Counted from the stretch's first letter, positions 1 through 59,126 are shown. The stretch is DNA of 64,000 nt from Candidatus Algichlamydia australiensis (GCA_033977065.1 JAXCHI010000003.1:416001-480000); one strand, 5' to 3'. Made by a program: numbers and translations. Notes: a model not told the origin generated them from the sequence alone.

Positions 1-312
1 CTTCTGTTTTTTTAGACGCTGAATGTGTGAGCAGTTATGCAAGAAGTAGTAGCTATCATCGCGAAGAGGAATGGTGGTATCTGCTTGTCCCTCTGTAATA
101 AAAAGAGAGTTCGAAAGGTCATATTTTGAGAGATCATCCTTCTCATCAAGCCAGTAAGTCTCATAACCTAAGTGTTTAAACGCACGATAAAAGGCGTTAT
201 GAATGTAGGAGTGGGTGTGCGTATGGAGTTTATGGCCCCAGATCACAACTCTTTCGAATGGATCAGCTTGCAAAAGAGCAAAGCAGATAAAAAAAAGAAC
301 GAACCTCTTCAT
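1..312 (-). CDS. 5' part of an exported glycosyltransferase-like protein (runs off the window); paralog of 10526-11575
   Basis: Not in the ORF track. Manual translation from ATG at 312 gives MKRFVLFFICFALLQADPFERVVIWGHKLHTHTHSYIHNAFYRAFKHLG, open to position 1. Shares VVIWGxKLHTHTHSYIH..FYRAFKHLG with 10526-11575. Confidence 0.85.
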   Translation of the reverse strand, partial: MKRFVLFFICFALLQADPFERVVIWGHKLHTHTHSYIHNAFYRAFKHLGYETYWLDEKDDLSKYDLSNSLFITEGQADTTIPLRDDSYYFLHNCSHIQRLKKQK

Positions 313-360
313 GTTTTGTGATGGTACCGTTAAGACAATTTTCAGATCCAGTGAATTTTT

Positions 361-533
361 CCTCTGTACTGGACAAAAATTTCACCAATGGGAGAGCTGT
401 GCCTTTATCAAATCGATTCTCCTCCTCGTCCATAGCAATATGGGTTACGGACTCGTCGCTCGAAACGCTGCTGCTTCGATTTGATTTTGGCTCGCTTTGC
501 TCCTCTTGGCAAAATTTTTGTCCAGTACAGAGG
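361..533. mobile_element. MITE family A, copy 1 (173 bp)
   Basis: 22-bp TIR CCTCTGTACTGGACAAAAATTT at both ends; 7-bp direct repeat AATTTTT at 354-360 and 534-540; near-identical inverted copy at 46890-47062. Confidence 0.93.
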
Positions 534-579
534 AATTTTTCTTGCGAAGCTATTTATACAGGAGTACTATCCAGTAGGT

Positions 580-1416
580 ATGAAAAAGTTAAGTATTGTT
601 TTTTTTATTTTCTGTTGTTCTTTTTTGAATGCAAAGGTGAGTGGATACAAAAAGGATCCAATTATTACTTTCACAGATGAGAAAGTTCACAGATTTCCCT
701 ACCAAGACCAAGAGCCTCATCTCTTTGTTGCCTCGTTTCCTCACAGTGGAAGCCATTTTTTCATGTACATGGTGCAGTATTTTTCTCGGCGCGTTTGGCA
801 GGTCCCAAGAAAGCGCTACTTTTTTCACCTAGATCGAATTGATAAAAAGCTTTCTCCTTATTATCGTTGCCATAGCTGCACAGATACAGATTTTTACAAT
901 CGAATAAAGGGATATTTTTTTCCCTATGTTGTAGAAAAAGATAAACTGATTCTTTTGCTTCGAAATTACAAAGAAAACTGTTTTAACAAAAGTCGTTATA
1001 TTAAGTACCAAGACTCCTCTCAGTTTGAAAAAATCTTACGTAGTGGAAGTAGGCAATATCTTAATCTTCTCAGATGTTTTGATCGTTGGCCAGAAGAGAG
1101 GCGGCTCCTCATTCGTTATGAAGATTTGATTAAATCTCCAGAAAAGGTACTGCGCCAAGCTCTAGAGTTTCTCGAGGTTGAGTATAAAGAGAGGGAGATG
1201 CATGAGTTTTTTACCCCCAAAAAATTTCAATTCCATCGATTGCGGTGCATGAAATTAATGGAAATTTTGAACGGGGGACCGAGCATTTCGAAGGGAAAAA
1301 GTACAAGATTTCATGCGGGATATGCTAAGCAAGAAATTCTTGATCAAATTGATTGTCACTTTGAAGAGGCGGCTCCCGATCTTTTTAACCGTTACCTTGA
1401 GGAGTATCGAGAATGA
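580..1416 (+). CDS. Exported sulfotransferase-domain protein
   Basis: PAPS-loop-like SFPHSGSHF, LLLRNYKE and IRYEDL motifs; signal peptide from ATG 580 (MKKLSIVFFIFCCSFLNA). The ORF-track start at 481 lies inside the MITE. Confidence 0.8.
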   Translation: MKKLSIVFFIFCCSFLNAKVSGYKKDPIITFTDEKVHRFPYQDQEPHLFVASFPHSGSHFFMYMVQYFSRRVWQVPRKRYFFHLDRIDKKLSPYYRCHSCTDTDFYNRIKGYFFPYVVEKDKLILLLRNYKENCFNKSRYIKYQDSSQFEKILRSGSRQYLNLLRCFDRWPEERRLLIRYEDLIKSPEKVLRQALEFLEVEYKEREMHEFFTPKKFQFHRLRCMKLMEILNGGPSISKGKSTRFHAGYAKQEILDQIDCHFEEAAPDLFNRYLEEYRE

Positions 1417-2474
1417 AGCGCGCTCTGCTTTTTATTTTGGTTACCATTTCCCTTTTTTCTCAAAAGAAGGTTCTGCACATCACATTTCATAAAGGGTGTG
1501 CCAAAGAGTTTGAGTTTGTTGCAGATGAACTTGATCTGGATTTGACAACTCTTTTTGTTCACAAGTTGGGTCCAAAAGAGTTTGATGGGGTAGCCAAAGG
1601 ATCTGCTCTCTACAATGTGGGTCATGATCGGGCAAAGCGCGTTTGGGATTTGCATAAAGAGATGTTCGAATCCTATGATTTGATTGTGACCTCTGATACA
1701 GCACCTCTCTCTCGTATTTTTTTGCAGAATGGATGGAAAAAACCTCTAATTATATGGGTCTGTAATCGATTTGATTATGTAGCAAAGTGCGCATTAGACT
1801 GTTCTTTTCCGGATAAGGAGTACTATCATTTGATCGCTTCAACGAAAAAGAGACCAAATGTAAAAGTTTTTTCCTATACACCTTATGAACATCGCTATGC
1901 GAAAGTTGTTCGCGGTGTTGATGCTTGGTCAGATACAATCAAACCGACAGGCGGAGGAAGTCCCTATTGCGGGGATAGATCTCCTATTCCAGCTACTGTT
2001 GATCGCTCTGAAACTTTTTTTATTCCGCCTTACCACAACGATACGCATTTTATGAATCTCTCTGCTAAGCTAACATCTCTTGGAATTCCCAACTATCGAG
2101 GGCGCTATTCTGGACCTGAAGATCTTGCCTCTTTTAAGGGGATTGTGCATATCCCTTATGCATGGTCGAACCTAGCTCTATTTGAAAACTTAAGAAATGG
2201 TCTGATCTACTTTATTCCTTCAAAGAAGTTTCTTCTACGGCTCTCTAAGATGAGTAATTTTTTCTGGTCGCCCCCTTTTCGTCGGGAGTTTGTTGAGGAC
2301 TCTGAGTGGTACAATCCGGAGTATAAGGATCTATTTGTCTTTTTTGACTCTTGGAAAGATCTGAAAAAAAGGGTTGAGACAACAGATTACCTGGCCATGC
2401 AAGAGAGAATCATGCAGTTTTCTAAACAGCATCAGAAAGAGATGTTGGAAAAATGGAGAGCAGCGATTTATTGA
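1413..2474 (+). CDS. Exported hypothetical protein, probably glycosyltransferase-like (GT-B)
   Basis: Signal peptide MKRALLFILVTISLFS; C-terminal HIPYAWSNLALFE resembles a GT-B donor-binding segment; ATGA overlap with the upstream gene. Confidence 0.5.
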   Translation: MKRALLFILVTISLFSQKKVLHITFHKGCAKEFEFVADELDLDLTTLFVHKLGPKEFDGVAKGSALYNVGHDRAKRVWDLHKEMFESYDLIVTSDTAPLSRIFLQNGWKKPLIIWVCNRFDYVAKCALDCSFPDKEYYHLIASTKKRPNVKVFSYTPYEHRYAKVVRGVDAWSDTIKPTGGGSPYCGDRSPIPATVDRSETFFIPPYHNDTHFMNLSAKLTSLGIPNYRGRYSGPEDLASFKGIVHIPYAWSNLALFENLRNGLIYFIPSKKFLLRLSKMSNFFWSPPFRREFVEDSEWYNPEYKDLFVFFDSWKDLKKRVETTDYLAMQERIMQFSKQHQKEMLEKWRAAIY

Positions 2475-3181
2475 TAGCGCATCAGGTACTTTTCAGTTAG
2501 CTCAGGGTAAGTTGTCATTACAAGGTCATCGATTTTTTTGAGACGTTGAGGGCTCGCCTTTTTTGAGTGGTAGATCGTTCCTTTTCCCTTTGTTGAGGAG
2601 CCATGAAAGTTTGCGTCATAGATTTTTATAGCTCTTTTTTGATGCTCTTCATATCTCTCCATAAACGTCTCAAATGTGTTGGGATCGCCTTCTAGAAACT
2701 CAACTAGCTTTTCTAGAGATTCGCGAGGATTTTTAATAATGTCTTCGTAGTAGAGAAGAAGTTTTTTATCTTCATCCCAAATGTCGTAACTCTCTAAATT
2801 ATGGAAGTAGTGAAACTCCTTTTTTGCAATCATATCTAGCAGCTGATTAAGTCGTCCAACGCCAAGTCCAGGTTTGCGAAAAGAGGCATAACGACAAAGG
2901 ATTTCTTTGTAGTTGCGAACGAGCAAGATGAGTTTTTTTTCTCTGCCGAGCTGCTTTGCTTTGTTCGGGTGGATGGAGTGGGACTTTGCAATGATCGGAG
3001 CGCCCTCGGGTTTTGGAGAGAGTTGTGTAAAGTTTGTGTCGTAATCTGTAAGAGTCTCAATACAGTAACGGACCCATGTATTTCCACTTTTGGGGGAAGA
3101 GAGGAGATAACCCTCGTAGTGTGCTGGATTTGCAATCAAAAAAAGGGGGAAAAGGAGCAAACAAATCATTTTTTTTAGCAT
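2468..3181 (-). CDS. Exported sulfotransferase-domain protein
   Basis: SSPKSGNTW (5'-PSB loop), LLVRNYKE, LYYEDI; signal peptide. Confidence 0.85.
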   Translation of the reverse strand: MLKKMICLLLFPLFLIANPAHYEGYLLSSPKSGNTWVRYCIETLTDYDTNFTQLSPKPEGAPIIAKSHSIHPNKAKQLGREKKLILLVRNYKEILCRYASFRKPGLGVGRLNQLLDMIAKKEFHYFHNLESYDIWDEDKKLLLYYEDIIKNPRESLEKLVEFLEGDPNTFETFMERYEEHQKRAIKIYDANFHGSSTKGKGTIYHSKKASPQRLKKIDDLVMTTYPELTEKYLMRYQ

Positions 3182-3184
3182 CAA

Positions 3185-4060
3185 TTATTCCTCTCTATTG
3201 GGGTTAAAAAGAACTTGCAGCTCTTCATATGGGGGGATATTGCGAATTTTTTCGGCTAAAGAGAACTGTGTATTCCCTCTGACAAAGCAATCACTCAATG
3301 GGTTGTCTGACTGGTAAAGAACAAGGCAATCGGGAATGTAGTAAGCGTGTAGACGCGCCATGTCGATCATAGGAAGCATGGTCGCAAGGTCAGAGGTGGA
3401 GGGGAGGTACTTCCCGCGGTCTTTCTGATCTTCAAGTCGAATTTTTTTTGCTAACCCTGCGTAATAAGTACGAAGGTGAGAGGTGGTCCATTTGCATTTG
3501 CGAATTGTGCCCTCCTCCAGTACCTTTTTAGGGACAGGTTGTGCCAATTTTCCGAGATTATGAGTGGGTACTTCTATGTGAGATCCGTAGGTGAGCCAGA
3601 CGTGAGGGTTTGCGTAGACTTGATTCAGTTTTTCGAGCACATAAGGATTAGAAAAAGAGTCATCTCCATCTAAAAGTACAATGATCTCGCGATCTTTACA
3701 CATTCCCACTGCGTTCACGTGGTTAGCCATAGCTCCCACATTTTTTTTATTTCGGATCATGGTGGCTTTCTCTTCTAACCCGTACGCTGCAACCACCTCT
3801 TTTGCAACCGAAAAATTATCATCGGTGGAGGCGTCGTCAATATAGATTAAGCGAAAATTTCCATAAACTTGCTCTGCTACAGATTGCAGTGTTTTTCTCA
3901 CATAAGCTGCATTGTTGTAGCAGCTCATTAAGACTACAAAGGGTTTTTCTTCTTTTGGGGCTGTAGGCTGGGCGATTTGGTACTGCTGTTTTAAGAGATT
4001 GGGAAGGGCAAAGAAGGTGAGGACAAAGCCAGAGAGAAATACAAAAAAGCAACGGATCAT
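3185..4060 (-). CDS. Glycosyltransferase family 2, N-terminal anchor
   Basis: VLMSCYNN, YIDDAS, LDGDD, HLRTYY motifs. Confidence 0.85.
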   Translation of the reverse strand: MIRCFFVFLSGFVLTFFALPNLLKQQYQIAQPTAPKEEKPFVVLMSCYNNAAYVRKTLQSVAEQVYGNFRLIYIDDASTDDNFSVAKEVVAAYGLEEKATMIRNKKNVGAMANHVNAVGMCKDREIIVLLDGDDSFSNPYVLEKLNQVYANPHVWLTYGSHIEVPTHNLGKLAQPVPKKVLEEGTIRKCKWTTSHLRTYYAGLAKKIRLEDQKDRGKYLPSTSDLATMLPMIDMARLHAYYIPDCLVLYQSDNPLSDCFVRGNTQFSLAEKIRNIPPYEELQVLFNPNREE

Positions 4061-4887
4061 AACTGTTTGTAGGCTGGTTTAGCGCGAATTTCTTTGTTAA
4101 TCGCAAACTGTTTTATGTGATCAATACGATGATCACTTATTGGATTGTGGTCATTATATAGGTAAAGGACTTCAGGGACAAAACAAAAATGGTTGCAAGC
4201 CATTTCAATCATTGGAATCATGGCGGCAGAGTCCCAGCTCATCTCATAAAACTTTCCCTCTTTTTGAAGGTCTTCAATTTTGATTTTTTGAAAGAGCCAG
4301 GCGTAAAAGGTGCGGAGATGAGTCGGAAGATCGGGATGTTTTCGAAAAGTATTTCCTCTAATGACCTCCCTTGGGAAAGGCTTTGCAAAGCCTTTTCTAC
4401 AACTTCTTTGCTCTAAAAATTGACCATAGGTAAGCCAGATCTCTTTTTTCGGGTTGGAGTAGATGCGATTGAGATTGCTTAGTACGTGGGGGTGGGCGAG
4501 CTGATCATCTCCATCAAGGGTGATGACAATTTCATTTCCAGAAATATCGTTGTGTACGGCATGGTACAGATTGTAGAGAGCGAGTTTTCTCTTCTTATTA
4601 TTAATAATTTTTACGTTTTCTCTTCCTAAGGTCTCTCTTTCTACTAATTCAAGAGTTCTATCGGTTGAGCAGTCGTTAATAAAAAGAACACGAAAATTCT
4701 TATACTCTTGCTGCAGTGCGCTCCGAATGTTCGCTACGCAATATTTTTCATTATTATAGGAGGGGATGAGGATGACAAAGGGTTTTTCCTCTTTCGCTTT
4801 TGGAAAATGGTTTTTTTTAATTTGAGGCGGGCAAAGAGCAAAAAAACCAGCAGAAAAAAAGAAGAGATAGAAAGCAAATCTTTTCAC
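4057..4887 (-). CDS. Glycosyltransferase family 2, N-terminal anchor/signal
   Basis: ILIPSYNN, INDCSTD, LDGDD, HLRTFYAWLF. Confidence 0.88.
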   Translation of the reverse strand: MKRFAFYLFFFSAGFFALCPPQIKKNHFPKAKEEKPFVILIPSYNNEKYCVANIRSALQQEYKNFRVLFINDCSTDRTLELVERETLGRENVKIINNKKRKLALYNLYHAVHNDISGNEIVITLDGDDQLAHPHVLSNLNRIYSNPKKEIWLTYGQFLEQRSCRKGFAKPFPREVIRGNTFRKHPDLPTHLRTFYAWLFQKIKIEDLQKEGKFYEMSWDSAAMIPMIEMACNHFCFVPEVLYLYNDHNPISDHRIDHIKQFAINKEIRAKPAYKQL

Positions 4888-5696
4888 GGACGATGGAGCA
4901 AGGGGGTGTAAACAGGTTTGTTGCGAATTTCTCGATTGATCGAAAATTGCAGCTCTTGGCTTGCTTTGTGATCATTTAATGGATTGAGATCGTTATAGAT
5001 GTAGAGCACTTTGGGAATAAACTTGAAATGGTCGCGTGCCATTTCAATCATCGGCATCATTATGGCGACATCCCAAGTCATAGGGTAAAAAGCTCCATTA
5101 CTCTTTAAGTCTTCCTCTTTGATCATTTTAAATAGCCAAGCGTAAAAAGTGCGCAGGTGAGAGGGGAGGTGCGTGTGTTTGCGAAAGGCATTTTTTTCTA
5201 CCACTTTTTTTGGCATGTCGCTAACCCAAGATTTGCATTTTGGGTTCGACCAAAAACCTAATTGACCATAGGTGAGCCAGATCTCTTTTTCGGGATTGGA
5301 GTAGGTGCGATTGAGATAATATAAAACATAATTTGAGGCGAGTTTATCATCACCATCAACGGTTAATACGATCTCATCATCATCAACGAATTCGTGAATA
5401 GCATTGTAGTAATTAGCAAGAGCAAGGTTGCGTGTGTGGTTGTCCACAATCGTAACAATTTCTTTTTTTCCACTTTTCTCTATCTCTTTTTGCACAAGCT
5501 GAAGTGTACGGTCTGAAGAGCAGTCATTAATGAAGATGATGCGGTAATTTTTATACTCTTGTCTGAGTGAAGCACGAATGTTAGCAACGCAATATTTTTC
5601 GTTATTGTAGGAGGGCGTGATTATAACAAATGGTTTCTCTGGTAATCGCGAAAAGAGCGAGAAAGTTGCAATAATAAAAGGTAGAATGATTTTCAT
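4884..5696 (-). CDS. Glycosyltransferase family 2 with signal peptide
   Basis: IITPSYNN, INDCSSD, VDGDD, HLRTFYAWLF. Confidence 0.88.
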   Translation of the reverse strand: MKIILPFIIATFSLFSRLPEKPFVIITPSYNNEKYCVANIRASLRQEYKNYRIIFINDCSSDRTLQLVQKEIEKSGKKEIVTIVDNHTRNLALANYYNAIHEFVDDDEIVLTVDGDDKLASNYVLYYLNRTYSNPEKEIWLTYGQLGFWSNPKCKSWVSDMPKKVVEKNAFRKHTHLPSHLRTFYAWLFKMIKEEDLKSNGAFYPMTWDVAIMMPMIEMARDHFKFIPKVLYIYNDLNPLNDHKASQELQFSINREIRNKPVYTPLLHRP

Positions 5697-6490
5697 GGCG
5701 CCTCTATTGGACTGTATGGGGCACGTTTGCGAATGTGCTTGTTATAATCCATCTGTTTTTTCCAGTTAATCTGATGATCACTTATTGGATTTTGATCGTT
5801 GTAAATATAGAGAATTTTATTAATAAATGTGTGGTGGTCGCGTGCCATCTCTAACATGGGAAGGATAATGGCTGAATCGCCTGTCATTTTATAAAAGTCT
5901 CCTCTATATAACAGATCCTGTTTTGCTATTCGTTTGAAGAGCCAGCCGTAGAAAGTGCGCACGTGTGTGGGAATATGGACATAGGAGCGAAACTTATTCC
6001 TCTTTACAATCTCATCAGGGAATGTGCGTCCCCATCCTTTTTCCTTGCTCTTTTTGCACTGAAAGTTGCTATAGGCTAACCAGATTTCGCGCTCTTTATT
6101 TTGGTAGACGCTGTTGAGAACATTTAAGACGTTTGGGTGAGCAAGTTCATCATCACCATCAAGCATAACAACAATCTCTTCATCGGATACTTCGTTATGA
6201 ATTGTGTAGTAGATGTTGGCAAGGGAGTAACGACGCTTAGGATTATCAATGAGTTGCACGCGATTTTTAGCATCATTTTTTTCAATAAATGATTCCACAA
6301 GGTTGAGCGTATTGTCTGTTGAGGCGTCATTCACGTAGAGAATGCGGTAGTTGCAGTAATTTTGGTTGAGTGCGCTAAAGAGGTTTTCTTCACAAAACTT
6401 TTCATTGTTATAGGAGGGAATAAGGATAACAAAGGGGAGTTGATTTGCAAAAAGGCATAGAGGAAGAAGAAGTAGAAGCATTTTTTTCAT
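5693..6490 (-). CDS. Glycosyltransferase family 2 with signal peptide
   Basis: ILIPSYNN, VNDASTD, LDGDD. Start placed at 6490 (MKKMLLLLLPLCLFA), which gives an ATGA overlap with the upstream stop. Confidence 0.88.
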   Translation of the reverse strand: MKKMLLLLLPLCLFANQLPFVILIPSYNNEKFCEENLFSALNQNYCNYRILYVNDASTDNTLNLVESFIEKNDAKNRVQLIDNPKRRYSLANIYYTIHNEVSDEEIVVMLDGDDELAHPNVLNVLNSVYQNKEREIWLAYSNFQCKKSKEKGWGRTFPDEIVKRNKFRSYVHIPTHVRTFYGWLFKRIAKQDLLYRGDFYKMTGDSAIILPMLEMARDHHTFINKILYIYNDQNPISDHQINWKKQMDYNKHIRKRAPYSPIEAP

Positions 6491-7428
6491 TCTGATAGAT
6501 CCTTTGGTGGGAAGTTTTTCCAATTAGAACGGCAGAAAACAAAGTAGGAGTTTTTGCTTTCTGAGAAGAGTTTATTTCCATTTGCAAATATGCCTTTTAA
6601 AAGCCCATTTCTACGAATGAAAACGCTTAATGGGGCCTGACAAGGGGTTGTCACAAAGAAGGGCTCTCGCATTTGTGCCGCCTTATAGTACTCGGTAAGG
6701 CATTTGTTTGCTTTTTTGTTTGAGAAGTCAAAGCCAACTACTCCACTCATGATATGGCGTGTTTGGTAGACCTCTTGGAGGGTCATATTCATCGACTTCA
6801 TAAACCTTTCATGCGCAATCATTGCAAGAGGACAAGGGTCTTTTCGAAAGAGCATACCGTTTTGTTCAATATGACTGAATAAATAACTTAAGTTTTTTGA
6901 GGGAAACATGGAAGCATCGATCCAGATAACTTTTTTGTATCCAAGTTTTCGCGCCTCCATAAGAGCGCAGGGTTTAAAAGCGTACGGGACATCAAAAAGC
7001 TCTAGCCCTCCATCTTCAATGTAGGGCCACCCTCCGACGCGATAGAGAAAATGTCCTTTGAAGCCGACTCTACGTAAGCGACGGATGATTTCATCGATGC
7101 CTTCAGAAAATTTCCCGTTTGTAGAGGTGTAGGTAAGAATGCAGCACTCACGGTCATCGGGCGATGTGTTAATAAATTCTGTTTGTAGAAGGGGAATTTT
7201 ATGAGAGTTTTCATCAATAATAGAGAACTTTTTTATCCGCTCTGATCTTCGAGAACACAGCTTTCCATCGCGTGTATGAATCCACTTTAACTCAGGGCGC
7301 TCCCCATGAGATAGATACTCCTGTAGTAGATGAAAATCTTCAACAGTAGGGTTTTTCCAGTCGGAGATTTCAATATGTGGATGGGCAAAGAGGAGGAGGG
7401 GAAGCAAAAAAAGAGTAATTTTATTCAT
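6487..7428 (-). CDS. Exported hypothetical protein, GT-A/DUF1647-like
   Basis: Signal peptide; YAFKP and WIDAS motifs resemble DUF1647-like putative transferases. Confidence 0.5.
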   Translation of the reverse strand: MNKITLFLLPLLLFAHPHIEISDWKNPTVEDFHLLQEYLSHGERPELKWIHTRDGKLCSRRSERIKKFSIIDENSHKIPLLQTEFINTSPDDRECCILTYTSTNGKFSEGIDEIIRRLRRVGFKGHFLYRVGGWPYIEDGGLELFDVPYAFKPCALMEARKLGYKKVIWIDASMFPSKNLSYLFSHIEQNGMLFRKDPCPLAMIAHERFMKSMNMTLQEVYQTRHIMSGVVGFDFSNKKANKCLTEYYKAAQMREPFFVTTPCQAPLSVFIRRNGLLKGIFANGNKLFSESKNSYFVFCRSNWKNFPPKDLSE

Positions 7429-8174
7429 ACTTTCCTTAATTTTGCGTGGTCCTTATCTAAAGCAATTAATTTAGGAGGGTAGGCGTGCTGGTTGGTAAAC
7501 CATTTTTTCTTTCTTTCTGGCATGCAGTAGCTTGGAGAGAGAATTCTGGTGGGAGGGTGATCAATAAAATAGCGATTAAGATGGCTCTCATCATGCCACA
7601 CAGCAATAACCCCCCGTTTTAGATCGCGATCAACTTTTTTCACCGTAGTTTCAAGAAGTTTGATGAACTCGCTTCGCGTCCCACCATAGTACCCACCGGC
7701 AAAATAGAATTTACCTTCCGATTTTTTTACGTAAGCTGTTGACTTTGGAGAGGTTTCATAGCTCCCTCGTTTATTCACAAATCCCGGGTGCTGCGTTCCG
7801 ATGCGGGCGCCAAGCATCTCTTCACCTACATCCGCAACAAAGAGCATGTCTGCATCTGATGCAAAGATATAATCGAGGTTGGCAAAGAGCTCTTTGTGCT
7901 TCAAATAGGTATGAAAACGTTTTAAAGTATCGTGTGGCCACCCTAGTCTCTCTTGTGGAACGACAACTACATCATCTTCAAACTCAAGATTCGTATCTGA
8001 AAAAACAAAGTAGGTGACATTGTGACCTTTAAAAAAGTGTTTGCGACAAGAGGCGATAAACTCTTTTGCGAAGACATCGTAACGCCCTGTTGCCATCATG
8101 CAAAGGCCAATGTTGTACTCTTTTGCGAAGCAGAAGAGAGGAAGCAAAAGTATAGATAGAAGAAAACGGGACAC
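7425..8174 (-). CDS. Glycosyltransferase family 6 (ABO/alpha-1,3-Gal(NAc)-transferase family)
   Basis: ATGRY, WP..TL.RF, DADM, YFAGGYYGG and WHDESHLNRYF are hallmark GT6 motifs; signal peptide. Confidence 0.92.
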   Translation of the reverse strand: MSRFLLSILLLPLFCFAKEYNIGLCMMATGRYDVFAKEFIASCRKHFFKGHNVTYFVFSDTNLEFEDDVVVVPQERLGWPHDTLKRFHTYLKHKELFANLDYIFASDADMLFVADVGEEMLGARIGTQHPGFVNKRGSYETSPKSTAYVKKSEGKFYFAGGYYGGTRSEFIKLLETTVKKVDRDLKRGVIAVWHDESHLNRYFIDHPPTRILSPSYCMPERKKKWFTNQHAYPPKLIALDKDHAKLRKV

Positions 8175-8210
8175 TTGGTTAACCTAGTTTTTTAGCCCCA
8201 GAGTAGTAGA

Positions 8211-9107
8211 ATGAAGAAATTTTTTACATCACTTTTTTTGATCACAACAATTTGTGCGCAGAAAGCAGACCTGATCATTTTTTCCTATGACCGTCCTCTA
8301 CAAGCCTATGCTCTTCTTGAGTCTGCAGAACAACATGTAACAGGGATTGAAAAAGTAGTAGTGCTTTTTCGTGCGAGCAATCCCGAGTATGAGCAAGGTT
8401 ATGAGGAAGTTGCTAAGCAATTTCCCGATACGAAATTTATTCAACAGTCTCATAGATATGCAAAGGAAGATTTTAAACCTCTTTTAATGAAAGCATTAAG
8501 TAGAGAGTGCCGCAGTCCTTATCTCTTTTTTGCCGTCGATGACATTGTGATTAAGGACCAAATTGATCTCCCTCTCTGTATCTCCTATTTAGAAAAATAC
8601 AAGGCAGAGGGTTTTCACCTTCGAATGGGAAAAAACTTGGATTACTGCTATACCGAACAGAGCAAACAGCCGCTTCCCCCGCTCACAGAAGTCGAAGAGG
8701 GAGTACTACGTTGGCGTTTTAGTCAAGGAAAGCATGATTGGCGCTATCCCCATACGGTGGATTGTTGCGTTTTTCGCAAAAAACAGATTCTTAAAGATTT
8801 TTCTTCCATGCGATTTTCAAATCCGAACACATTAGAAGCAAAATGGGCAACTCGTTGTGATTTTTCCCGTTTTGGTCTCTGTTTTGAAACTTCAAAAATT
8901 GTGAACCTTCCCCTCAATTTGGTGAATGAGACCTACAAAAATGTTCATTTGAACAGCTTTACCCCGAAAGATCTACTAAAGATCTTTAATGACGGGAAAA
9001 AGATGGATATTATGCAGCTCTACCAGATTGAAAATCGCTCTGCGCATATCGATTATGAGCCTAGCTTTACTGAGCGTACATCCAGAGATACTTCTTCCAG
9101 AGATTAG
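8211..9107 (+). CDS. Exported GT-A-fold glycosyltransferase-like protein
   Basis: IIFSYDRPLQ start motif, FFAVDD, PNTLE; signal peptide. Confidence 0.6.
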   Translation: MKKFFTSLFLITTICAQKADLIIFSYDRPLQAYALLESAEQHVTGIEKVVVLFRASNPEYEQGYEEVAKQFPDTKFIQQSHRYAKEDFKPLLMKALSRECRSPYLFFAVDDIVIKDQIDLPLCISYLEKYKAEGFHLRMGKNLDYCYTEQSKQPLPPLTEVEEGVLRWRFSQGKHDWRYPHTVDCCVFRKKQILKDFSSMRFSNPNTLEAKWATRCDFSRFGLCFETSKIVNLPLNLVNETYKNVHLNSFTPKDLLKIFNDGKKMDIMQLYQIENRSAHIDYEPSFTERTSRDTSSRD

Positions 9108-9765
9108 GATAGTTTTTCTTCGCATAATCATCTAGAGCCTGCAGTTCTCTGTCCGAGACATCTTTTGAGTGATAAGTTAAATCTTTACCTTTTGAGCGCG
9201 CTCCTCCATATTTTTTATAGAATTGCAGTACTTTTCTTCGATGAGCGGCAATATTAAAAAGAAACTCCTCTAATTCTTGCTCATCATAACAGTCTAAAAA
9301 TTTGAGTACTTTTGTTAGTGTCTGTTTTGGATGCAAGATAAGATCTTCATAGTATACAAGAAGACGTCTTTCTGGATCCCAGGAGTCATAAAGCTTCAAG
9401 TTTTCAAAATAGTTCTTTTTCTCAGATATGTTTTGGAGGGCTTTTTTTACTGACCTGTGATGACGTATCATACACTCTTTGTAATTGCGAACTTGCAAAA
9501 TCAGAAGAGTGTCATCGCTTTTTTCTACTTGTGAGTGAAAATGCGTGTGGCGGTAAGGAGGTAGAGTAGGATCGTGCTCTATACCTGCTGTTGAATAGGA
9601 GATAAGCTTTGGCCCAGCTCTGCACTCTCGATGGGAAAAATGACCAATACAGTACATCAACCAGTGCGTTCCGCAGCGTGGATAAGTCAGGAAATAGAGA
9701 TCAAACTCACTGCTTGATAGAGGAGCGATTGCGAGAAGGGCAAAATAGCACCCTCTAGCTTTTAT
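9067..9765 (-). CDS. Sulfotransferase-domain protein (start uncertain; likely ATA at 9765)
   Basis: TYPRCGTHW, LQVRNYKE, VYYEDL; close paralog of 9762-10472. Confidence 0.8.
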   Translation of the reverse strand: MKARGCYFALLAIAPLSSSEFDLYFLTYPRCGTHWLMYCIGHFSHRECRAGPKLISYSTAGIEHDPTLPPYRHTHFHSQVEKSDDTLLILQVRNYKECMIRHHRSVKKALQNISEKKNYFENLKLYDSWDPERRLLVYYEDLILHPKQTLTKVLKFLDCYDEQELEEFLFNIAAHRRKVLQFYKKYGGARSKGKDLTYHSKDVSDRELQALDDYAKKNYPNLWKKYLWMYAQ

Positions 9766-10472
9766 AAAGTCTCGTATATAGTAAAATACTTTTCCCAAAT
9801 ATCTGGGTAGTGCTTTTTTATTCGATTTTCTAACAGTTTGCATTTTTCCGCTTGTGCCTTTTTAGAATGATATAAGAGATCAGATCCTCGTGATCTTGCT
9901 CCCCCTCTTTTTTTGTCATAAAACTGCAAAACAATTTGTTGATGTATTGAGAAATTATCTAGAAATTCTTGCAGCTTTTCTTCGTCGTACTGATTTAGAA
10001 ATATTAACACTTCGCGCAACACACTCTTGGGATCTTTCATAAAATCTTCGTAATAAACAAGAAGTTTGCGCTTGGGGTTCCACTTATCAAAGTACTGGAT
10101 ATTTCTAAAAAAATAGGACTCCCTTTTTGTGCATTGCTCAATGGCATTATCGATTGATTTACAGTGACGAACAAGTGATTCTGTAGGATTTCGAACAATC
10201 ATTAAGAGGTAGTCTTTTTTTCGATCTGGTGCAGGCTTTATTCTTAAGTTGTGAGAATGAATATAGCGATTTTTATCTGGATCACACTCTGCTGCTGCGG
10301 GCGTATAGATTGTTCTTCCACCATCAACAAGCCATCCTCTATCAGTAAGCATAGTGATGCAATACATCATCCAGTTGGCACCTGATCGGGGATAGGTAAG
10401 GAAAATTACCTCAGGAGAACTTGCTGCTAAGTGCAGAGTAAAAAGAAGAGAGAGAACAAAAATTTTTCTCAT
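9762..10472 (-). CDS. Exported sulfotransferase-domain protein
   Basis: TYPRSGANW, IVRNP, VYYEDF; signal peptide MRKIFVLSLLFTLHLAA. Confidence 0.85.
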   Translation of the reverse strand: MRKIFVLSLLFTLHLAASSPEVIFLTYPRSGANWMMYCITMLTDRGWLVDGGRTIYTPAAAECDPDKNRYIHSHNLRIKPAPDRKKDYLLMIVRNPTESLVRHCKSIDNAIEQCTKRESYFFRNIQYFDKWNPKRKLLVYYEDFMKDPKSVLREVLIFLNQYDEEKLQEFLDNFSIHQQIVLQFYDKKRGGARSRGSDLLYHSKKAQAEKCKLLENRIKKHYPDIWEKYFTIYETL

Positions 10473-10525
10473 AATATTTCGATTTTTTCTTGATGCTATT
10501 CGATCGCCTTAATATTATCAAGAAA

Positions 10526-11575
10526 ATGAAAAGATTTTGTCTGGTTTTTGTTTTACTTGTCTCCTCACTTAGTGCTTTTGATAAAGTTGTGATTTGGGGT
10601 TACAAGCTTCACACGCATACGCACTCCTATATCCATCAAGGATTTTACCGTGCATTCAAACACTTAGGATTTGACGTTCGTTGGTATGATGAGAATGATC
10701 CTATTAACGAAGAGGAGCTTGCAAATTCTCTTTTCATCTTGAACTTGACTCGTTCAGATAACATTCCGATACGTTCCGATTGTTTCTATATTTTACACAC
10801 ACGTTGGCGCAAAGAGTTTTCTGCACTTGATACAAAATTTGGACCTTTGATTGAGCAGGGGCGTTGCGTTGCAATGAAGTGCTTTTGCGATCGTTTTCTC
10901 GATTTACCAGGATATGAAAAGCTAGCTCCCTGCATTTATAGGTCGTTAAAGAAGCGCGATGTTGTCATGCCGTGGGCAACGGACCTTCTGCCTCATGAGA
11001 TTGATAAAGAGAAAGAGCGCCTCGCAAACATCTCTCCTAAAAAGCGGGTTGCTTATCTTGGAACAATCGGAAGAGGTGAAGGGCGGGGGTCTAACTATCA
11101 GCAGTTGTATCCTTTTTTCAAAGAGGCAAGACGAAGAGGCTACTCTGTAAAAACGAACGACCCTTGGAGTAAACCTCTTTCGATTGAGGAGATGAAACAG
11201 CTTTTGCAAGAATCAAAGCTTGCACCAGCAATACAAGGTGCATGGCAAGTAAGAAAAGGGTATATTCCTTGCCGCATCTTTAAAAATTTAAGTTACGGCT
11301 GTCTTGGTATAACAAACTCTTATCGCGTTTGGGAACTCTTTGATCGCAAAGTTGTTTACGATCCTGATTCAGCAAACCTCTTTGTAAAAGCGGAAAAAGC
11401 TTTAGAGACCTACTCTCTTGAAGAGCGCTTTGCCATGATGGATTATATTAAGGAGCACCATACCTACTTAAGTCGTATACGGCTTCTTTTGGAAGCGTTG
11501 CATGTTTGTTCAGGTGATCAACATATTCTTGAGATCATCGAAAACTTCAGCAATAAGAGAGGTTTTAATATTTAA
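10526..11575 (+). CDS. Exported glycosyltransferase-like protein (GT-B/CgeB-like C-terminus)
   Basis: Signal peptide from ATG 10526; C-terminal CRIFK..SYG and EHHTYLSRI. Confidence 0.6.
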   Translation: MKRFCLVFVLLVSSLSAFDKVVIWGYKLHTHTHSYIHQGFYRAFKHLGFDVRWYDENDPINEEELANSLFILNLTRSDNIPIRSDCFYILHTRWRKEFSALDTKFGPLIEQGRCVAMKCFCDRFLDLPGYEKLAPCIYRSLKKRDVVMPWATDLLPHEIDKEKERLANISPKKRVAYLGTIGRGEGRGSNYQQLYPFFKEARRRGYSVKTNDPWSKPLSIEEMKQLLQESKLAPAIQGAWQVRKGYIPCRIFKNLSYGCLGITNSYRVWELFDRKVVYDPDSANLFVKAEKALETYSLEERFAMMDYIKEHHTYLSRIRLLLEALHVCSGDQHILEIIENFSNKRGFNI

Positions 11576-11615
11576 GTTGACAGGCGCTTACTATCAAAGC
11601 TAGTTTGAAATTGGA

Positions 11616-12413
11616 ATGAAAAGTCGCCTGCAGAGAGTGATTGCTCTCTTTATTATTTTGAGTGTTCCTACTTTTATTCTGAAGGAGTATCAGAATTTAA
11701 AAGTCTCTAGACGGAAAAATATTTTTTCTGAAGTCAAGCCTGCTCAACCAGTTGCGTGTTTGCGTGATAAAGAGTTTGTGATTCTCATTGTTTCGACTGC
11801 CATCAATGAGCAATTTTGGGAGAGAAATTTAAACTCTTTACTTACACAAGCTTATGAAAATTATCGTGTGGTCTATCTTGATGGTGGTAGTTCACAGAGA
11901 ATGCTCGATCGCATCGAGTATTCAGTTGCGCAGAATGAAAAAGCGGAGCTTGTAACGATCATTCGCAAGGAAGAGAAGCGCTCCTTGTTTGAGCACTATT
12001 GTGATGTTGTCAAAAACTTAGCGGATGATGCAGTGGTAGTTCACCTTGATGGAAATGACTGGCTTGCACACGACCTTGTTTTGCAAAAACTCAATAGCGC
12101 TTACTCTTGCCAAGGGGTATGGCTTACCTACGGCGGCTACTTAGAGTATACGCCTGGAAAGGCGGTATCGAGTATTGAGGCCTTTCAACAGCAAGTTAGT
12201 GGTCAAAGGCGCTCTAGCAGTGTTCCGTGGTTTCGCTCACCTCTTAAAACCTATTACGCAAAATTATTCAAACAGCTTGATTTCAGTGCGATCTATCAAG
12301 AAGACCAAGCCTTAACTGGATCGAGTTGGGGGTTCATGCTGCCGATGGTACAGATGGCGGGGCGTCATGTGCACTACATTCCTGAAGTTCTCTACGTTCA
12401 CAACACTATCTAG
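11616..12413 (+). CDS. Divergent glycosyltransferase family 2 paralog, membrane anchored
   Basis: HLDGNDWLAH, VWLTYG, LKTYYAKLF and HYIPEVLY match the four tandem GT2s; some acidic motifs are altered. Confidence 0.75.
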   Translation: MKSRLQRVIALFIILSVPTFILKEYQNLKVSRRKNIFSEVKPAQPVACLRDKEFVILIVSTAINEQFWERNLNSLLTQAYENYRVVYLDGGSSQRMLDRIEYSVAQNEKAELVTIIRKEEKRSLFEHYCDVVKNLADDAVVVHLDGNDWLAHDLVLQKLNSAYSCQGVWLTYGGYLEYTPGKAVSSIEAFQQQVSGQRRSSSVPWFRSPLKTYYAKLFKQLDFSAIYQEDQALTGSSWGFMLPMVQMAGRHVHYIPEVLYVHNTI

Positions 12414-12575
12414 ATAGCGTCGTCAAAAGGCTATAATCAGATTATTTTTCATGTTTGCAGCTTATTTTTGTGCGGAAATTGAAGCTGAATTTGTAAATTC
12501 CGCTTCATTTGAGCACAAAAATGGAGCCCAAACATGAAAAATAAGATAGTTGTATGCTTTTGACGACGCTATCTA
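12411..12575. mobile_element. MITE family B, copy 1 (165 bp including terminal TA), whole-element hairpin
   Basis: TIR TAGATAGCGTCGTCAAAAG / CTTTTGACGACGCTATCTA; nested internal inverted repeats; second full copy at 17806-17970. Confidence 0.92.
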
Positions 12576-26288: not shown

Positions 26289-26293
26289 CTTAA

Positions 26294-46889: not shown

Positions 46890-47062
46890 CCTCTGTACTG
46901 GACAAAAATTTTGCCAAGAGGAGCAAAGCGAGCCAAAATCAAATCGAAGCAGCAGCGTTTCGAGCGACGAGTCCATAGCCCATAGTGCTATGGACGAGGA
47001 GGAGAATCGATTTGATAAAGGCGCAGCTCTCCCATTGGTGAAATTTTTGTCCAGTACAGAGG
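46890..47062. mobile_element. MITE family A, copy 2 (173 bp, inverted relative to copy 1)
   Basis: Same 22-bp TIRs; 7-bp direct repeat GTTAAGT at 46883-46889 and 47063-47069; 4 substitutions versus copy 1. Confidence 0.93.
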
Positions 47063-56201: not shown

Positions 56202-56293
56202 CAGTTTATTACTTTAGCATTTGAATCTAGAGAGATCAACTTCTTGATTTAGAAAAAAAGACAGGATATAGTTTGTTTTCTTAAAAGGTGTTT

Positions 56294-57163
56294 ATGAAAA
56301 AACTTGTTTTGTTTCTAATTTTAGTATTTTCATTAAAAGCAGAGGAAAACAAAATTATTTATCTTTTGTCTCCTCCTCGCTCTTGCTCAACTCTTTTTAT
56401 GAGGATAATTGCAAATCATGAGAGGATGGCAGTTTTTAACGAACCATCTCAGCGCTCTTACGTAAGGGTGCATCACCCGGAAGTAGAGCACTGGTGGCGA
56501 GAAGATGGCCCCAAAACTCACAAGGAGATGCAAAAGCTCCTCTATGAGCAGAGAAAAGAATCAAACGTATTTGTGAAGGAAATGAACTTTGCTGTTTATG
56601 ATTTGCTTCCAAATGAGCTGGAGTTCCTCCAAGATCCTAACGTCCATTTTGTTTTTTTAGTTCGCAATCCCCATGCCGTTGCAATTTCTATCTATAAAAA
56701 ATTAGAAAGTGTCTGGGATGATATGGATGATATCATGGGCATGAAGCAGTTATATGAGACATTTCAGCTTGCTAGAAGAGAGTCAGCAAATCCAGTAAGA
56801 GTTATTTTCAGTGAGCAAATTTATGAAAACCCAGAGAGAACAGTAAAGACTTTTTGCGACTGCTATAATTTTCCATTTAAAGAGAGTTTGCTGGAGTGGC
56901 ATCCTTATCCTGATGATTTTACTGGGGTAGAAGAGTGGCATGAATTTAAACGTTCTGATCAATTGTTTCACTGGCATGGAAATGCGATTCGTAGTAGCGG
57001 GATTGGTCGCCCCCAAGAGTATGAGCTAGACGAGTTGGGAAGACCCACATTTAATGAAATTAAAAATGAGTCTGACCGCGAAAAAACACGAGCCGTTTAT
57101 GAGAGGCAGCTTATTTGGTACAAAAAGTTTGTCAATAAAACTGGTCCATATTTAATCAAATAG
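56294..57163 (+). CDS. Exported sulfotransferase-like P-loop protein
   Basis: SPPRSCSTLFMR, FNEP, VFVKEM, FLVRNP; signal peptide. Confidence 0.75.
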   Translation: MKKLVLFLILVFSLKAEENKIIYLLSPPRSCSTLFMRIIANHERMAVFNEPSQRSYVRVHHPEVEHWWREDGPKTHKEMQKLLYEQRKESNVFVKEMNFAVYDLLPNELEFLQDPNVHFVFLVRNPHAVAISIYKKLESVWDDMDDIMGMKQLYETFQLARRESANPVRVIFSEQIYENPERTVKTFCDCYNFPFKESLLEWHPYPDDFTGVEEWHEFKRSDQLFHWHGNAIRSSGIGRPQEYELDELGRPTFNEIKNESDREKTRAVYERQLIWYKKFVNKTGPYLIK

Positions 57164-57225
57164 TCACAAACGAATATAGACTTGGAGCGTTTTGGCAAAG
57201 CTTTGCCAGGAATACGAACAGTTTT

Positions 57226-57256: not shown

Positions 57257-57257
57257 T

Positions 57258-58181: not shown

Positions 58182-59126
58182 TTACAAGCGGATGTAGACT
58201 TGTGCGCCTTTTGCGGGGCGCTCGTTTTGATGGTCCCAGTGGGGTGTTTTGGCAAAGTCTTGCCAGATGCGTGGGTAGTCCTTGCGGCCGTAAAGGCGAT
58301 CAAGCGCTTGTTTGGGCTGCGCTGGGATCCAGATGCGGGTTGGGCCAAAAGCGCACCGTTTGCGATTTTGAATTTGAGAAGCTGCGTAGGTGTCATTAGG
58401 ATAATCGCGGCGAAAAAAAGGAGAGCGATGGTAGTAAGTCTCTTCCTCTTTTCTAAAAAAGAAAATATCAATGAAGGGAAAGGTCCACTCGCTTCCCATT
58501 TTTTTTCCATTTAGCGGTGAGAGTTTATAAAAGTCACCTTCATCGAGGTAGTGCAGGGCAATGCCCTGGCCAAGTAGCTCTTTTTTTAAAGAGAGAAGGG
58601 TGGTCTCATCTTGCTCAAGCATGTAGATATCGAGGTCATCATCCCAGGGGATGAGGCCTTTGTGGCGCACGGCTCCAAGCAGAGTGCCACCGCCTGCCCA
58701 GTAGGTAAGATCGTATTTAGTAAAAAGTTTGTCGACTTTTGCCATGAAATTATAGAGTTGTTTGGCAGTTTCTTTTGGGAGTGGAGGAATGTCGTGAATG
58801 GTTTTGGGAAGTTTTGCACACGCTTTTTTGATACGATGTGCAGAGATTTTTTTTGGCGCGTAGTGTTTGTATCCTGTGCGATTGGCGAGGCTGCCTAATT
58901 CTTTTTTTGTGAAAGAGCTGTTGTCAAGGATCACAATGGGAGTGAGGTTGTGGTAATGGTCAAGTGCTTCGATTTCTCTTTGAATTTGCTTTAGAGTTTT
59001 GCCCTTGGGGTTAAGAAGTGTGGCGTCTGTCTGTTTAGCCAATTTTTTGGCGTGGGCGGGAGCGTTAATGAGTAGGCGCGCTTGGAGCTGGGCGAGCAGG
59101 AGTAGGAGAGGTAGGTACTTCAGCAT
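58182..59126 (-). CDS. LicD/fukutin-family phosphotransferase with signal peptide
   Basis: GGTLLGAVRHKGLIPWDDDLDI, FIDIF, L.RLYG; N-terminus MLKYLPLLLLLAQLQA. Confidence 0.85.
   Translation of the reverse strand: MLKYLPLLLLLAQLQARLLINAPAHAKKLAKQTDATLLNPKGKTLKQIQREIEALDHYHNLTPIVILDNSSFTKKELGSLANRTGYKHYAPKKISAHRIKKACAKLPKTIHDIPPLPKETAKQLYNFMAKVDKLFTKYDLTYWAGGGTLLGAVRHKGLIPWDDDLDIYMLEQDETTLLSLKKELLGQGIALHYLDEGDFYKLSPLNGKKMGSEWTFPFIDIFFFRKEEETYYHRSPFFRRDYPNDTYAASQIQNRKRCAFGPTRIWIPAQPKQALDRLYGRKDYPRIWQDFAKTPHWDHQNERPAKGAQVYIRL

Follow-up and report, generated by a model that had tools for sequence, protein, structure and literature searches.

The 64,000-nucleotide stretch analysed here (the window; C3:416001-480000) belongs to the genome of Candidatus Algichlamydia australiensis, a member of the Simkaniaceae which, according to its published description, lives in single-cell inclusions within the dinoflagellate Cladocopium (PMC11317633), and for which the assembly amounts to 1.80 Mb in 7 contigs at 93.4% completeness. 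Positions 1-12413 hold 15 consecutive open reading frames (ORFs), namely four of the Sulfotransfer_1 family, four clear and one weak glycosyltransferase (GT) of family GT2, one GT6 and five without a Pfam family (Table 1), and we weigh below the reading that their products, nearly all of which begin like exported proteins, build and sulfate a glycan outside the bacterial cytoplasm. An earlier note on this DNA had counted four sulfotransferases, one GT6, five GT2 and five GT-like genes; the first two numbers hold, the fifth GT2 scores below the family cut-off, and three of the five GT-like proteins are of GT-A or GT-B type by predicted structure.

The cluster is larger than that note had allowed, as it continues for ~10 kb upstream of the window to C3:406363. 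The whole island spans ~22 kb (C3:406363-428413) with 24 genes, eight of them sulfotransferases, and its upstream part contributes four sulfotransferase paralogues, two GT32-like proteins (Gly_transf_sug, E 3e-13 and 3e-10), a weak GT2, a 221-residue protein and, in the middle of the stretch, topA. In all, ~20 small single-domain transferases are encoded, with at least six kinds of glycosyltransferase among them: GT2, GT6, GT32-like, one GT-A, one GT-B and a GT2-associated domain. Between 8174 and 2468, each of seven minus-strand genes either abuts its neighbour or shares 4 bases with it, an arrangement that suggests a single operon and fixes several start codons. With topA inside and genes for sigma-54 (window 12573-13640) and a UvrD/PcrA-like helicase on its flanks, the island is a variable cargo set among conserved genes; its G+C content, 0.39-0.42, lies slightly below the upper range of the window. 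Contamination by host DNA was considered and set aside: the genes lack introns, stand close together on a contig of 717 kb with topA, sigma-54 and UvrD-type genes around them, and show synteny with other chlamydiae. The 221-residue protein (L001:13211-13876, plus strand, equal to C3:413211-413876) carries neither a signal nor a recognisable family, recurs at the same island position in two other chlamydial loci and is, together with topA, the only island product of cytoplasmic look.

In 14 of the 15 window proteins the N-terminus is a basic tail that leads into 10-16 hydrophobic residues, much as the earlier note had described, and in the remaining one (9067-9843) the hydrophobic stretch comes after a basic tail of 30 residues. 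A site of the x-x-A/S/G type ends the core in 11 of the 15 (LFA↓N, LFA↓H, CFA↓K, ICA↓Q, LIA↓N, LNA↓K, LQA↓D and others). We scored N-termini with a home-made rule, which requires a basic tail together with an uncharged stretch that contains a hydrophobic core, and allows no second hydrophobic span; judged heuristically in this way, 11 of the 15 window proteins show all features sought in Sec and signal peptidase I substrates, that is, a basic n-region, an h-region of ~7-15 residues, small residues at -3 and -1 and a neutral or acidic mature start. The three GT2s at 3185-4060, 4057-4887 and 11616-12413 have no x-x-A/S/G site and may be uncleaved anchors. The pattern is not confined to the island, as the note had also observed: the sulfotransferase-like protein at 56294-57163 (Sulfotransfer_3) and the LicD protein at 58182-59126 share it. 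Within the genome as a whole it is enriched in the island: the loose form of the rule picks 20 of 24 island genes and 265 of the 1492 others (p 9e-12), and with the strict form the two counts fall to 17 and 153 (p 6e-12).

As a control on the strict form, 60 proteins drawn at random from the 98 strict positives that measure 180-520 residues and lie outside the island were scanned against Pfam. A family could be assigned to 34, and 22 of these are classical envelope families: six Legionella_OMP, HtrA, ZnuA, two solute-binding proteins, a secretin, PBP4, Amidase_3, MreC, TraU, TrbC, TPS, ApbE, a Mip-type FKBP, NamZ, NAGPA and SH3_3. Clear false positives numbered two (an adenylate kinase and an epimerase, with domains from residues 11-13), five fell into other families, and the last five were cofactor-dependent enzymes with a real N-terminal extension, comprising two sulfotransferases, a kinase-like protein, an S-adenosylmethionine (SAM) methyltransferase and a GNAT protein. 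The gene for the SAM methyltransferase adjoins a sulfotransferase paralogue. Signal-like N-termini were seen at C2:173357-174271(-), C2:187588-188712(+), C3:493329-494009(+) and C4:410004-410702(+), loci which encode a kinase-like protein (APH/ABC1), a SAM methyltransferase, a GNAT acetyltransferase and an Fe/Mn superoxide dismutase.

The hydrophobic segment, judged from the profile alignments, is an extra piece ahead of a complete catalytic domain and not the first strand of the fold. Position 2 of the Pfam GT2 profile falls at residues 25-43 of the island GT2s, and the GT6 domain starts at residue 18 with profile position 73, the part of the profile before that position being the one that holds the tail, anchor and stem of the vertebrate enzymes (PMC3516806). 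The three GT2 genes outside the island begin directly at the first strand, and the two GT4-type genes in another glycan cluster of the window, described below, have no N-terminal segment of this kind. The best 19-residue membrane-insertion sums were positive (2 to 9) in 21 of the 22 island proteins scored hydrophobic, the exception being 3185-4060 (-0.2). A type II anchor of the Golgi kind, with a span of ~17-22 residues followed by a stem, is not what these proteins have, as their cores measure 10-16 residues and the catalytic domains begin 3-25 residues later. In their short core, basic N-flank and A-type cleavage site, the island segments resemble Sec signals in an N-in orientation.

The same property was followed in relatives. 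A query of a word-indexed protein database with a single sulfotransferase returned the query itself only, and relatives of the sulfotransferases were therefore gathered by profile searches, which, in a library of 1.84 billion representatives, gave 3907 matches at E <= 0.001 and 555 at E <= 1e-30. A hydrophobic N-terminus was found in 117 of the 150 best sulfotransferase representatives, in 110 of the best 120 of 1078 GT6 relatives and in 112 of the best 120 of 1061 GT2 relatives (searched with 4057-4887); of the 33 sulfotransferases outside this count, several were missed by the rule or have gene calls cut short, and some are truly signal-less. The N-flank was the more basic one in 85 sulfotransferases, 66 GT6s and 75 GT2s, the C-flank in 13, 15 and 22, respectively. 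Signal-like N-termini are a family-wide trait in these relatives. A comparison across Chlamydiota, which the earlier note had proposed, covered 400 genomes. The sulfotransferase profile was positive in 48 of these 400 genomes, often in tandem arrays; it found no member of the family in the 29 sampled genomes of one family with ~1.1-Mb genomes (f4). Among the chlamydial loci that were fetched, 41 of 44 sulfotransferase homologues are signal-like, and the controls topA and the 221-residue protein are signal-negative (0 of 2 each). The N-terminal property is thus kept across hundreds of relatives from many chlamydial families while its sequence diverges, which is what is expected of signal peptides.

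The enzymes themselves appear intact. The four window sulfotransferases score 30.3-38.7 bits against a Sulfotransfer_1 (PF00685) cut-off of 22 (E 1e-9 to 4e-7), and they belong to a set of 12 paralogues in the genome with mutual identities of 25-58%. In an alignment of the 12, the loop P-R/K-S-G-x-x-W/F has an invariant Gly, His74, Arg94 and Glu98 are invariant and RNYKE and YYED are kept; these motifs align with PKSGTTW, the SULT-motif His and RNPKD of SULT1C3, i.e. with the loops that bind 3'-phosphoadenosine 5'-phosphosulfate (PAPS) and the catalytic His. The closest solved relatives of the profile are cytosolic SULTs (SULT1C3, E 4e-13) and StaL/Teg (E 1e-9 to 3e-5). By alignment, the island sulfotransferases keep their PAPS-binding and catalytic motifs.

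Among the glycosyltransferases, the four clear GT2s score 54.6-65.3 bits (E 8e-18 to 2e-14) and have a DGDD motif, and the divergent protein at 11616-12413 reaches 22.8 bits where the cut-off is 23.3, and 23.4 bits when its neighbours in the frame are included, with DGND in place of that motif. The GT6 at 7425-8174 (PF03414) shows SDADM and the conserved Glu motif, and its sequence places it with the D-X-D clade of PaGT6 from Parachlamydia. The protein at 10490-11575 is 44% identical to the paralogue cut at 1-312, its Atlas structure has a template-modelling (TM) score of ~0.8 to phage GT-like clusters over residues 27-340, and both are, on this model, GT-B-like; that of 6487-7428 (TM 0.53-0.78 to chlamydial, phage and Nucleotid_trans clusters) is, as modelled, GT-A-like and near Nucleotid_trans/GT34/GT8. 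Without a match in Pfam and related family scans, 8211-9107 is nevertheless 39% identical over 274 residues to residues 285-554 of a 555-residue GT2 fusion, one of several such fusions of 475-555 residues. The 353-residue protein at 1413-2474 matched nothing in Pfam, NCBIfam or PDB (in the last at chance level only, E 0.034) and by BLASTP showed no similarity to 10490-11575; its family occurs in 32 of the 400 Chlamydiota genomes, and 7 of 7 fetched relatives are signal-like. A sequence search of PDB gave no match for 6487-7428 or 8211-9107, and the single-sequence AlphaFold models of 8211-9107 and 1413-2474 were unusable (mean pLDDT 37.5 and 37.1).

Table 1. Island genes within the window, two further genes with the same N-terminal pattern, and loci for adenosine 5'-phosphosulfate (APS) kinase or PAPS synthase in other chlamydiae. 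Positions are those of the window unless a locus is named.
Feature	Position	Strand	Remarks
GT-B-like, 5' part of 321-residue gene (whole gene C3:415347-416312)	1..312	-	N-terminus MKRFVLFFICFALLQA; signal-like, LQA↓D site
Sulfotransferase paralogue	580..1416	+	ATG start giving MKKLSIVFFIFCCSFLNA; Sulfotransfer_3/_1 E 9e-8 and 3e-7
353-residue protein without family, signal-like N-terminus	1413..2474	+	conserved chlamydial family, often beside GT-B-like gene
Sulfotransferase paralogue, last of seven-gene minus-strand run	2468..3184	-	Sulfotransfer_1 E 3e-8; LIA↓N site
GT2, possible signal anchor	3185..4060	-	Glycos_transf_2 E 8e-18, domain from residue 43; 16-residue hydrophobic segment, no cleavage-type site
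GT2, orientation least certain	4057..4887	-	E 5e-17; hydrophobic N-terminal segment, then basic flank (+3)
GT2, signal-like N-terminus	4884..5696	-	E 2e-14; 59% identity with 4057-4887
GT2	5693..6490 (ORF 5693-6523)	-	start at MKKMLLLLLPLCLFA gives 4-base overlap with upstream gene; E 1e-16; LFA↓N site
313-residue protein, predicted GT-A fold, Nucleotid_trans/GT34/GT8-like, signal-like	6487..7428	-	Atlas structure; paralogue at C3:582492
GT6, signal-like, first of minus-strand run	7425..8174	-	Glyco_transf_6 E 3e-44, residues 18-225; D-A-D, WHDESHLN
298-residue protein, signal-like	8211..9107	+	homologue of C-terminal domain of GT2 fusions
Sulfotransferase paralogue, atypical N-terminus	9067..9843	-	Sulfotransfer_1 E 4e-7; hydrophobic stretch after long basic N-tail
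Sulfotransferase paralogue, signal-like	9762..10472	-	Sulfotransfer_1 E 1e-9
GT-B-like glycosyltransferase (predicted)	10526..11575 (ORF 10490-11575)	+	start at MKRFCLVFVLLVSSLSA; Atlas entry from residue 13
Divergent GT2-like, hydrophobic segment basic on both flanks	11616..12413	+	22.8 bits
Separate sulfotransferase-like gene, signal-like	56294..57163	+	Sulfotransfer_3 E 4e-7
LicD-family protein, signal-like	58182..59126	-	LicD E 5e-19
APS kinase/PAPS synthase loci	L045:11061-11630(-), L046:6231-7928(+), L047:2583-3572(-), L048:5726-6694(-), L049-L068		other chlamydiae

Some further features of the window lie near these genes. A scan for the sigma-54 promoter consensus gave 68 matches against 51 +/- 7 expected, none of them convincingly placed; an identical 15-base string with sigma-54-like GG...TTG spacing occurs at 507-521 (+) and 46902-46916 (-), the first copy 59 bases ahead of the sulfotransferase start at 580, with the total match count near chance. 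Between the sulfotransferase-like gene at 56294 and the LicD gene lies a gene with a BRO-N domain (57258-58103), and a DUF6194 gene (55743-56201) is found just upstream of them; 55743-58103 may be a small imported patch. An NTT nucleotide carrier gene (TLC family, E 7e-183; 61428-63041, minus strand) is situated near LicD, with genes for a CDP-alcohol phosphatidyltransferase and DedA/VTT in between, and two adjacent genes for eukaryote-type Ser/Thr kinases occupy 44680-46774 on the minus strand (Pkinase, E 2e-36 and 7e-41).

Profile searches of the 93.4% complete genome, which the earlier note had called for, returned no ATP sulfurylase and no PAPS_reduct/CysD, and the sole APS kinase match (19.7 bits) lies in FtsY; no route of PAPS synthesis is visible in these gene contents. 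Wzy_C and Poly_export likewise gave no match in the genome and Polysacc_synt a sub-threshold one (19.7 bits), and C3:406363-428413 contains no flippase, polymerase/ligase or outer-membrane exporter, an initiating phosphoglycosyl transferase having not been searched for. The island is accordingly not a polysaccharide locus of the Wzx/Wzy- or ABC-dependent type. No nucleotide-sugar or PAPS transporter and no signal-bearing phosphatase for 3'-phosphoadenosine 5'-phosphate (PAP) was found in the genome. Present are GspD-like secretins, six GalE-like short-chain dehydrogenase/reductase proteins and one GalU-like nucleotidyl transferase, none of the latter two kinds above equivalog cut-offs. The statement of the earlier note that the visible part lacks donor-synthesis, flippase and polymerase genes is correct for the island, and for the window as a whole it is not, as a conventional cluster for donors and export lies at 24537-32241 on the plus strand. 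This cluster comprises an MsbA-like ABC exporter (24537-26288), a UDP-ManNAc-dehydrogenase-like protein, a UDP-GlcNAc 2-epimerase, two signal-less GT4-type glycosyltransferases, a radical SAM protein and a WbmS-like deacetylase; a gene of the 2-phosphosulfolactate phosphatase family (32153-32818, opposite strand) adjoins it.

Other chlamydiae differ in their genes for PAPS supply. APS kinase matches were found in 60 of the 400 Chlamydiota genomes, with ~4 of them confined to the P-loop and probably FtsY, and they are more frequent where sulfotransferases occur (15 of 48 genomes, and 45 of 352 in the rest), although 33 of the 48, this genome included, have none. We compared 23 ORFs for APS kinase or PAPS synthase, each from a different genome. 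Sixteen are picked by the rule, 15 with a signal peptide and one with a longer anchor; three more have, by eye, a hydrophobic stretch after a long N-tail, which brings the total to 19 of 23, and four have none. The PAPS synthases combine PUA_2, ATP-sulfurylase and APS_kinase, and in this set the APS-kinase or PUA_2/ATP-sulfurylase domains start at residues 19-29, right behind the hydrophobic segment. A soluble enzyme such as PAPS synthase does not have to be held at a membrane, and its N-terminus is read most simply as an export signal; we regard the PAPS synthase with its predicted signal as a finding in its own right. Two of the 23 genes lie inside clusters with homologues of the island genes (GT6, GT2, the 353-residue family, GT-B-like, GT32 and sulfotransferases).

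The chromosomal place is conserved too, with a sigma-54 and UvrD-type flank at one locus and a topA flank at another, and the cargo differs. At L021, L022 and L025, loci of three other chlamydial genomes, it includes GT92, GT25, GT11, three GT90, a PLOD-type GT, an Asp/Asn beta-hydroxylase, a 2-oxoglutarate (2OG) oxygenase, methyltransferases and DUF1796, and other chlamydiae also carry Sulfotransfer_2 and a NodZ-like protein; the hydrophobic N-termini of these cargo proteins were read by eye in the first 40 residues. The eukaryotic relatives of the cargo at L021, L022 and L025 act in the lumen of the endoplasmic reticulum (ER) or Golgi, and those of GT90, GT92, GT11, the PLOD-type GT, the Asp/Asn beta-hydroxylase and the 2OG oxygenase modify secretory proteins. 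Descent of the island from Golgi enzymes was considered and dropped: the named relatives of the GT6 and GT2 proteins come from Chlamydiales, Chlamydiia, Simkaniaceae, Rhabdochlamydiaceae, Dependentiae, Babeliaceae and one Bathyarchaeia-labelled partial sequence, and the structural neighbours of the two unnamed glycosyltransferases are largely phage in one case and chlamydial plus phage in the other.

In textbook bacteria, the chemistry of nucleotide sugars and PAPS is cytoplasmic, and lipid-linked donors are used outside. For the island we favour, with a probability of about 0.6, an extracytoplasmic line of glycan synthesis and sulfation that runs on host-derived or locally made donors; the export of the enzymes, taken by itself and as predicted from their N-termini, we consider quite likely. 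Sec would carry the enzymes over the inner membrane, signal peptidase I would cleave most of them, and their place of action would be the periplasm, the cell surface or the narrow inclusion lumen around the single cell, where an acceptor would be extended stepwise and sulfated without a lipid-linked repeat unit, flippase or polymerase. UDP-sugars and PAPS would be supplied by the host, and relatives with a signal-bearing PAPS synthase would produce PAPS locally, using host ATP and sulfate. One part of the product may be a blood-group-A-like GalNAc cap, to judge by the Parachlamydia GT6, whose activity has been tested. We infer export, donors, acceptor and product alike from sequence. NTT carriers, five of which are predicted for A. 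australiensis, move host nucleotides over the chlamydial inner membrane (PMC11317633), and import at that membrane means that host nucleotides must already reach the periplasm. We propose this as the condition that would make such chemistry possible only in such bacteria. The Dependentiae live intracellularly in protists, and with this lifestyle the relatives named from that group fit the same condition.

A broader proposal, which we put forward tentatively and would not yet expect to hold, is that Chlamydiota and probably Dependentiae use the periplasm and vacuole as a Golgi-like reaction space, in which a Sec-exported, nucleotide-dependent kit makes host-like sulfated and blood-group-like glycans. 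Such a kit might comprise PAPS synthase, sulfotransferases, Leloir (nucleotide-sugar-dependent) glycosyltransferases of many families, SAM methyltransferases, kinase-like and acetyl-CoA-dependent enzymes and, in relatives, ER-type hydroxylases.

Several observations weigh against an extracytoplasmic line, and some of them would fit an alternative in which the hydrophobic segments are uncleaved tethers. The catalytic domains would then sit on the cytoplasmic face, donors would be cytoplasmic, either NTT-imported or made there, and a glycan built on lipid A-core or a lipid carrier would leave through the ABC exporter at 24537-26288. To our knowledge, all characterised bacterial Leloir glycosyltransferases and PAPS sulfotransferases act in the cytoplasm, and we know of no established bacterial precedent for exported enzymes of either kind, which gives our preferred reading a low prior. 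The exporter lies 12 kb from the island, with the UDP-GlcNAc 2-epimerase and the dehydrogenase in the same window. The charge of the C-flank is +3 or +4 in four island proteins (L001:10569-11372, 1413-2474, 4057-4887 and 11616-12413), which could be N-out anchors with a cytoplasmic catalytic domain, and the same could hold for some GT2 relatives, as 24 of the best 120 have cores of at least 18 residues and eight of these a more basic C-flank. Elsewhere, an NTT gene (L020:15155-16600, minus strand; TLC family, E 6e-118) lies within a sulfotransferase/GT-A cluster and could encode a carrier for PAPS or a nucleotide sugar, and a CysN-like GTPase without signal stands beside the signal-bearing APS kinase of L045; the two hint at a cytoplasmic supply line. 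The greater frequency of APS kinase in sulfotransferase-positive genomes means that host PAPS is not the general rule. In this genome, the single Inositol_P protein, a candidate for PAP removal, has no signal, and a co-varying pair of cysteines pointing to disulfides was not found, the best GT2 pair (both cysteines in 42 relatives, only one in 12 and 25, neither in 41) being confounded by relatedness. Finally, our topology calls by the home-made rule are heuristic, and its loose form also picks the hydrophobic first strands of Rossmann and P-loop proteins, which is why the strict form was controlled by the Pfam scan.

Against tethers speak the cores of 10-16 residues, too short for a membrane span, the positive insertion sums, the more basic N-flank in the large majority of relatives, the A-type cleavage sites and the GTs of the conventional cluster, which have no such segment. 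In 19 of 23 genomes an N-terminus of this kind stands on APS kinase or PAPS synthase, soluble enzymes for which a tether would be superfluous, and neither Wzy/WaaL nor Wza turned up in this genome. The earlier note had named conventional polysaccharide export genes just outside the window and cytoplasmic catalytic domains as what would speak against its proposal; an ABC exporter lies inside the window, in a cluster separate from the island, and most N-termini look signal-like, with a basic N-flank. We think it unlikely that tethers explain the island.

Another explanation that we hold to be improbable shares the export step with the extracytoplasmic line and differs in the acceptor. After passage through Sec, a type II system or vesicles would release the enzymes to modify host molecules, be they inclusion-membrane glycans, host glycoproteins or phenolics and sterols, with disguise of the vacuole or the detoxification or alteration of metabolites as the outcome. 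The nearness of the sulfotransferases to SULTs and StaL/Teg, which take small molecules, the divergence of the 12 paralogues, as in families diversified by substrate, and the GspD-like secretins would all suit such effectors, and so would the signal-bearing GT90, GT92, GT11, PLOD-type GT, Asp/Asn beta-hydroxylase and 2OG oxygenase of related loci. The tight operon packing of sulfotransferases with many glycosyltransferases, with 4-base overlaps, fits joint work on one glycan instead, and passage beyond the periplasm has no indication. That there is no working system at all, the genes being relics or recent phage imports with functionless N-termini, or proteins with mis-set start codons, is very improbable: the GT-B and GT-A proteins and the GT6 clade have phage relatives and the G+C content is slightly low, and both points would agree with it, but all frames are intact, several starts are fixed by overlaps, catalytic motifs are conserved, and the N-terminal property has outlasted sequence divergence over hundreds of relatives.

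If the extracytoplasmic line is real, it would amount to a new compartmental logic of bacterial glycobiology, enabled by parasitism on host nucleotides; and should the broader, tentative proposal hold as well, it would be a mode of glycan synthesis known in no bacterium and, by way of variable islands, a source of surface or vacuole mimicry. It would widen the known case of glycogen made in the chlamydial inclusion lumen to a diverse set of enzymes in ~1 in 8 sampled chlamydial genomes and in Dependentiae. The island also provides candidate genes for sulfated or blood-group-like glycans at the interface of symbiont and host, including a symbiont of reef-coral dinoflagellates. Full-text literature searches returned no description of chlamydial sulfotransferases, signal-bearing Leloir glycosyltransferases or an exported PAPS synthase, and the main text of the genome description mentions sulfotransferase, glycosyltransferase and signal peptide nowhere, although its supplementary tables may list the genes (PMC11317633).

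Known systems can be compared first at the level of individual enzymes. Cytosolic SULTs and the bacterial StaL/Teg (PDB 2reo, 3ckl, 2ov8 and 3nib) share the Sulfotransfer_1 fold, the PAPS loops and the catalytic His with the island sulfotransferases, but they are soluble cytosolic enzymes with small-molecule acceptors, while the island proteins have a mature part of ~215 residues behind a predicted signal peptide and are encoded in glycosyltransferase operons. The arylsulfate sulfotransferase of enterobacteria is periplasmic as well; it is PAPS-independent and of unrelated fold, and the island proteins, unlike it, carry PAPS-binding motifs. PaGT6 of Parachlamydia acanthamoebae and the cyanophage PSSM-2 enzyme form a clade of minimal GT6 proteins with D-X-D, which the D-A-D and conserved Glu motif of the window GT6, a predicted enzyme, match; the sections on PaGT6 are silent on a signal peptide (PMC3516806), and a hydrophobic N-terminus is present in most relatives of the window GT6, as given above.

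At the level of whole clusters, loci for O-antigen, capsule or extracellular polysaccharide with sulfotransferases, such as the putative cluster for sulfated glycosaminoglycan of Pontiella (PMC7356697), likewise combine clustered GT2s and other glycosyltransferases and sulfotransferases with variable cargo and conserved flanks; they hold flippase, polymerase or ABC export genes and sugar-nucleotide genes, and their enzymes are taken as cytoplasmic, whereas the island has none of these genes and its enzymes have predicted export signals. The Golgi resembles the proposed line in its many single-domain Leloir glycosyltransferases and PAPS sulfotransferases, which work stepwise, outside the cytosol and without lipid-linked repeat or polymerase, an arrangement proposed here from the genes, and in its families, GT6 being common to both and GT11, GT90 and GT92 to the Golgi and related chlamydial loci. 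In the Golgi, the enzymes are type II proteins held by a long anchor that a stem follows, and the island proteins have cleavable-type signals of 10-16 residues and no stem; nucleotide-sugar or PAPS transporters and a signal-bearing PAP phosphatase were not found in this genome, and common descent from Golgi enzymes is not indicated. Of the Golgi-like extracytoplasmic line that the earlier note had envisaged, the extracytoplasmic part is supported by Sec-like, family-wide N-termini, by a genome in which no PAPS route and no Wzy/WaaL or Wza was seen and, more strongly, by the signal-like N-terminus of PAPS synthase in other chlamydiae, and the likeness to the Golgi is one of function only. The closest known system is the luminal glycogen pathway of Chlamydia trachomatis, in which secreted enzymes make glycogen in the inclusion lumen from host UDP-glucose delivered by a co-opted host transporter (PMC4829429). 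What the two would share is that enzymes of the bacterium act on sugar nucleotides from the host beyond its own cytoplasm; there, by the published account, with type III secretion and one storage polymer (PMC4829429), and here with ~20 enzymes bearing predicted Sec-type signals, sulfotransferases among them, and a PAPS synthase in relatives.

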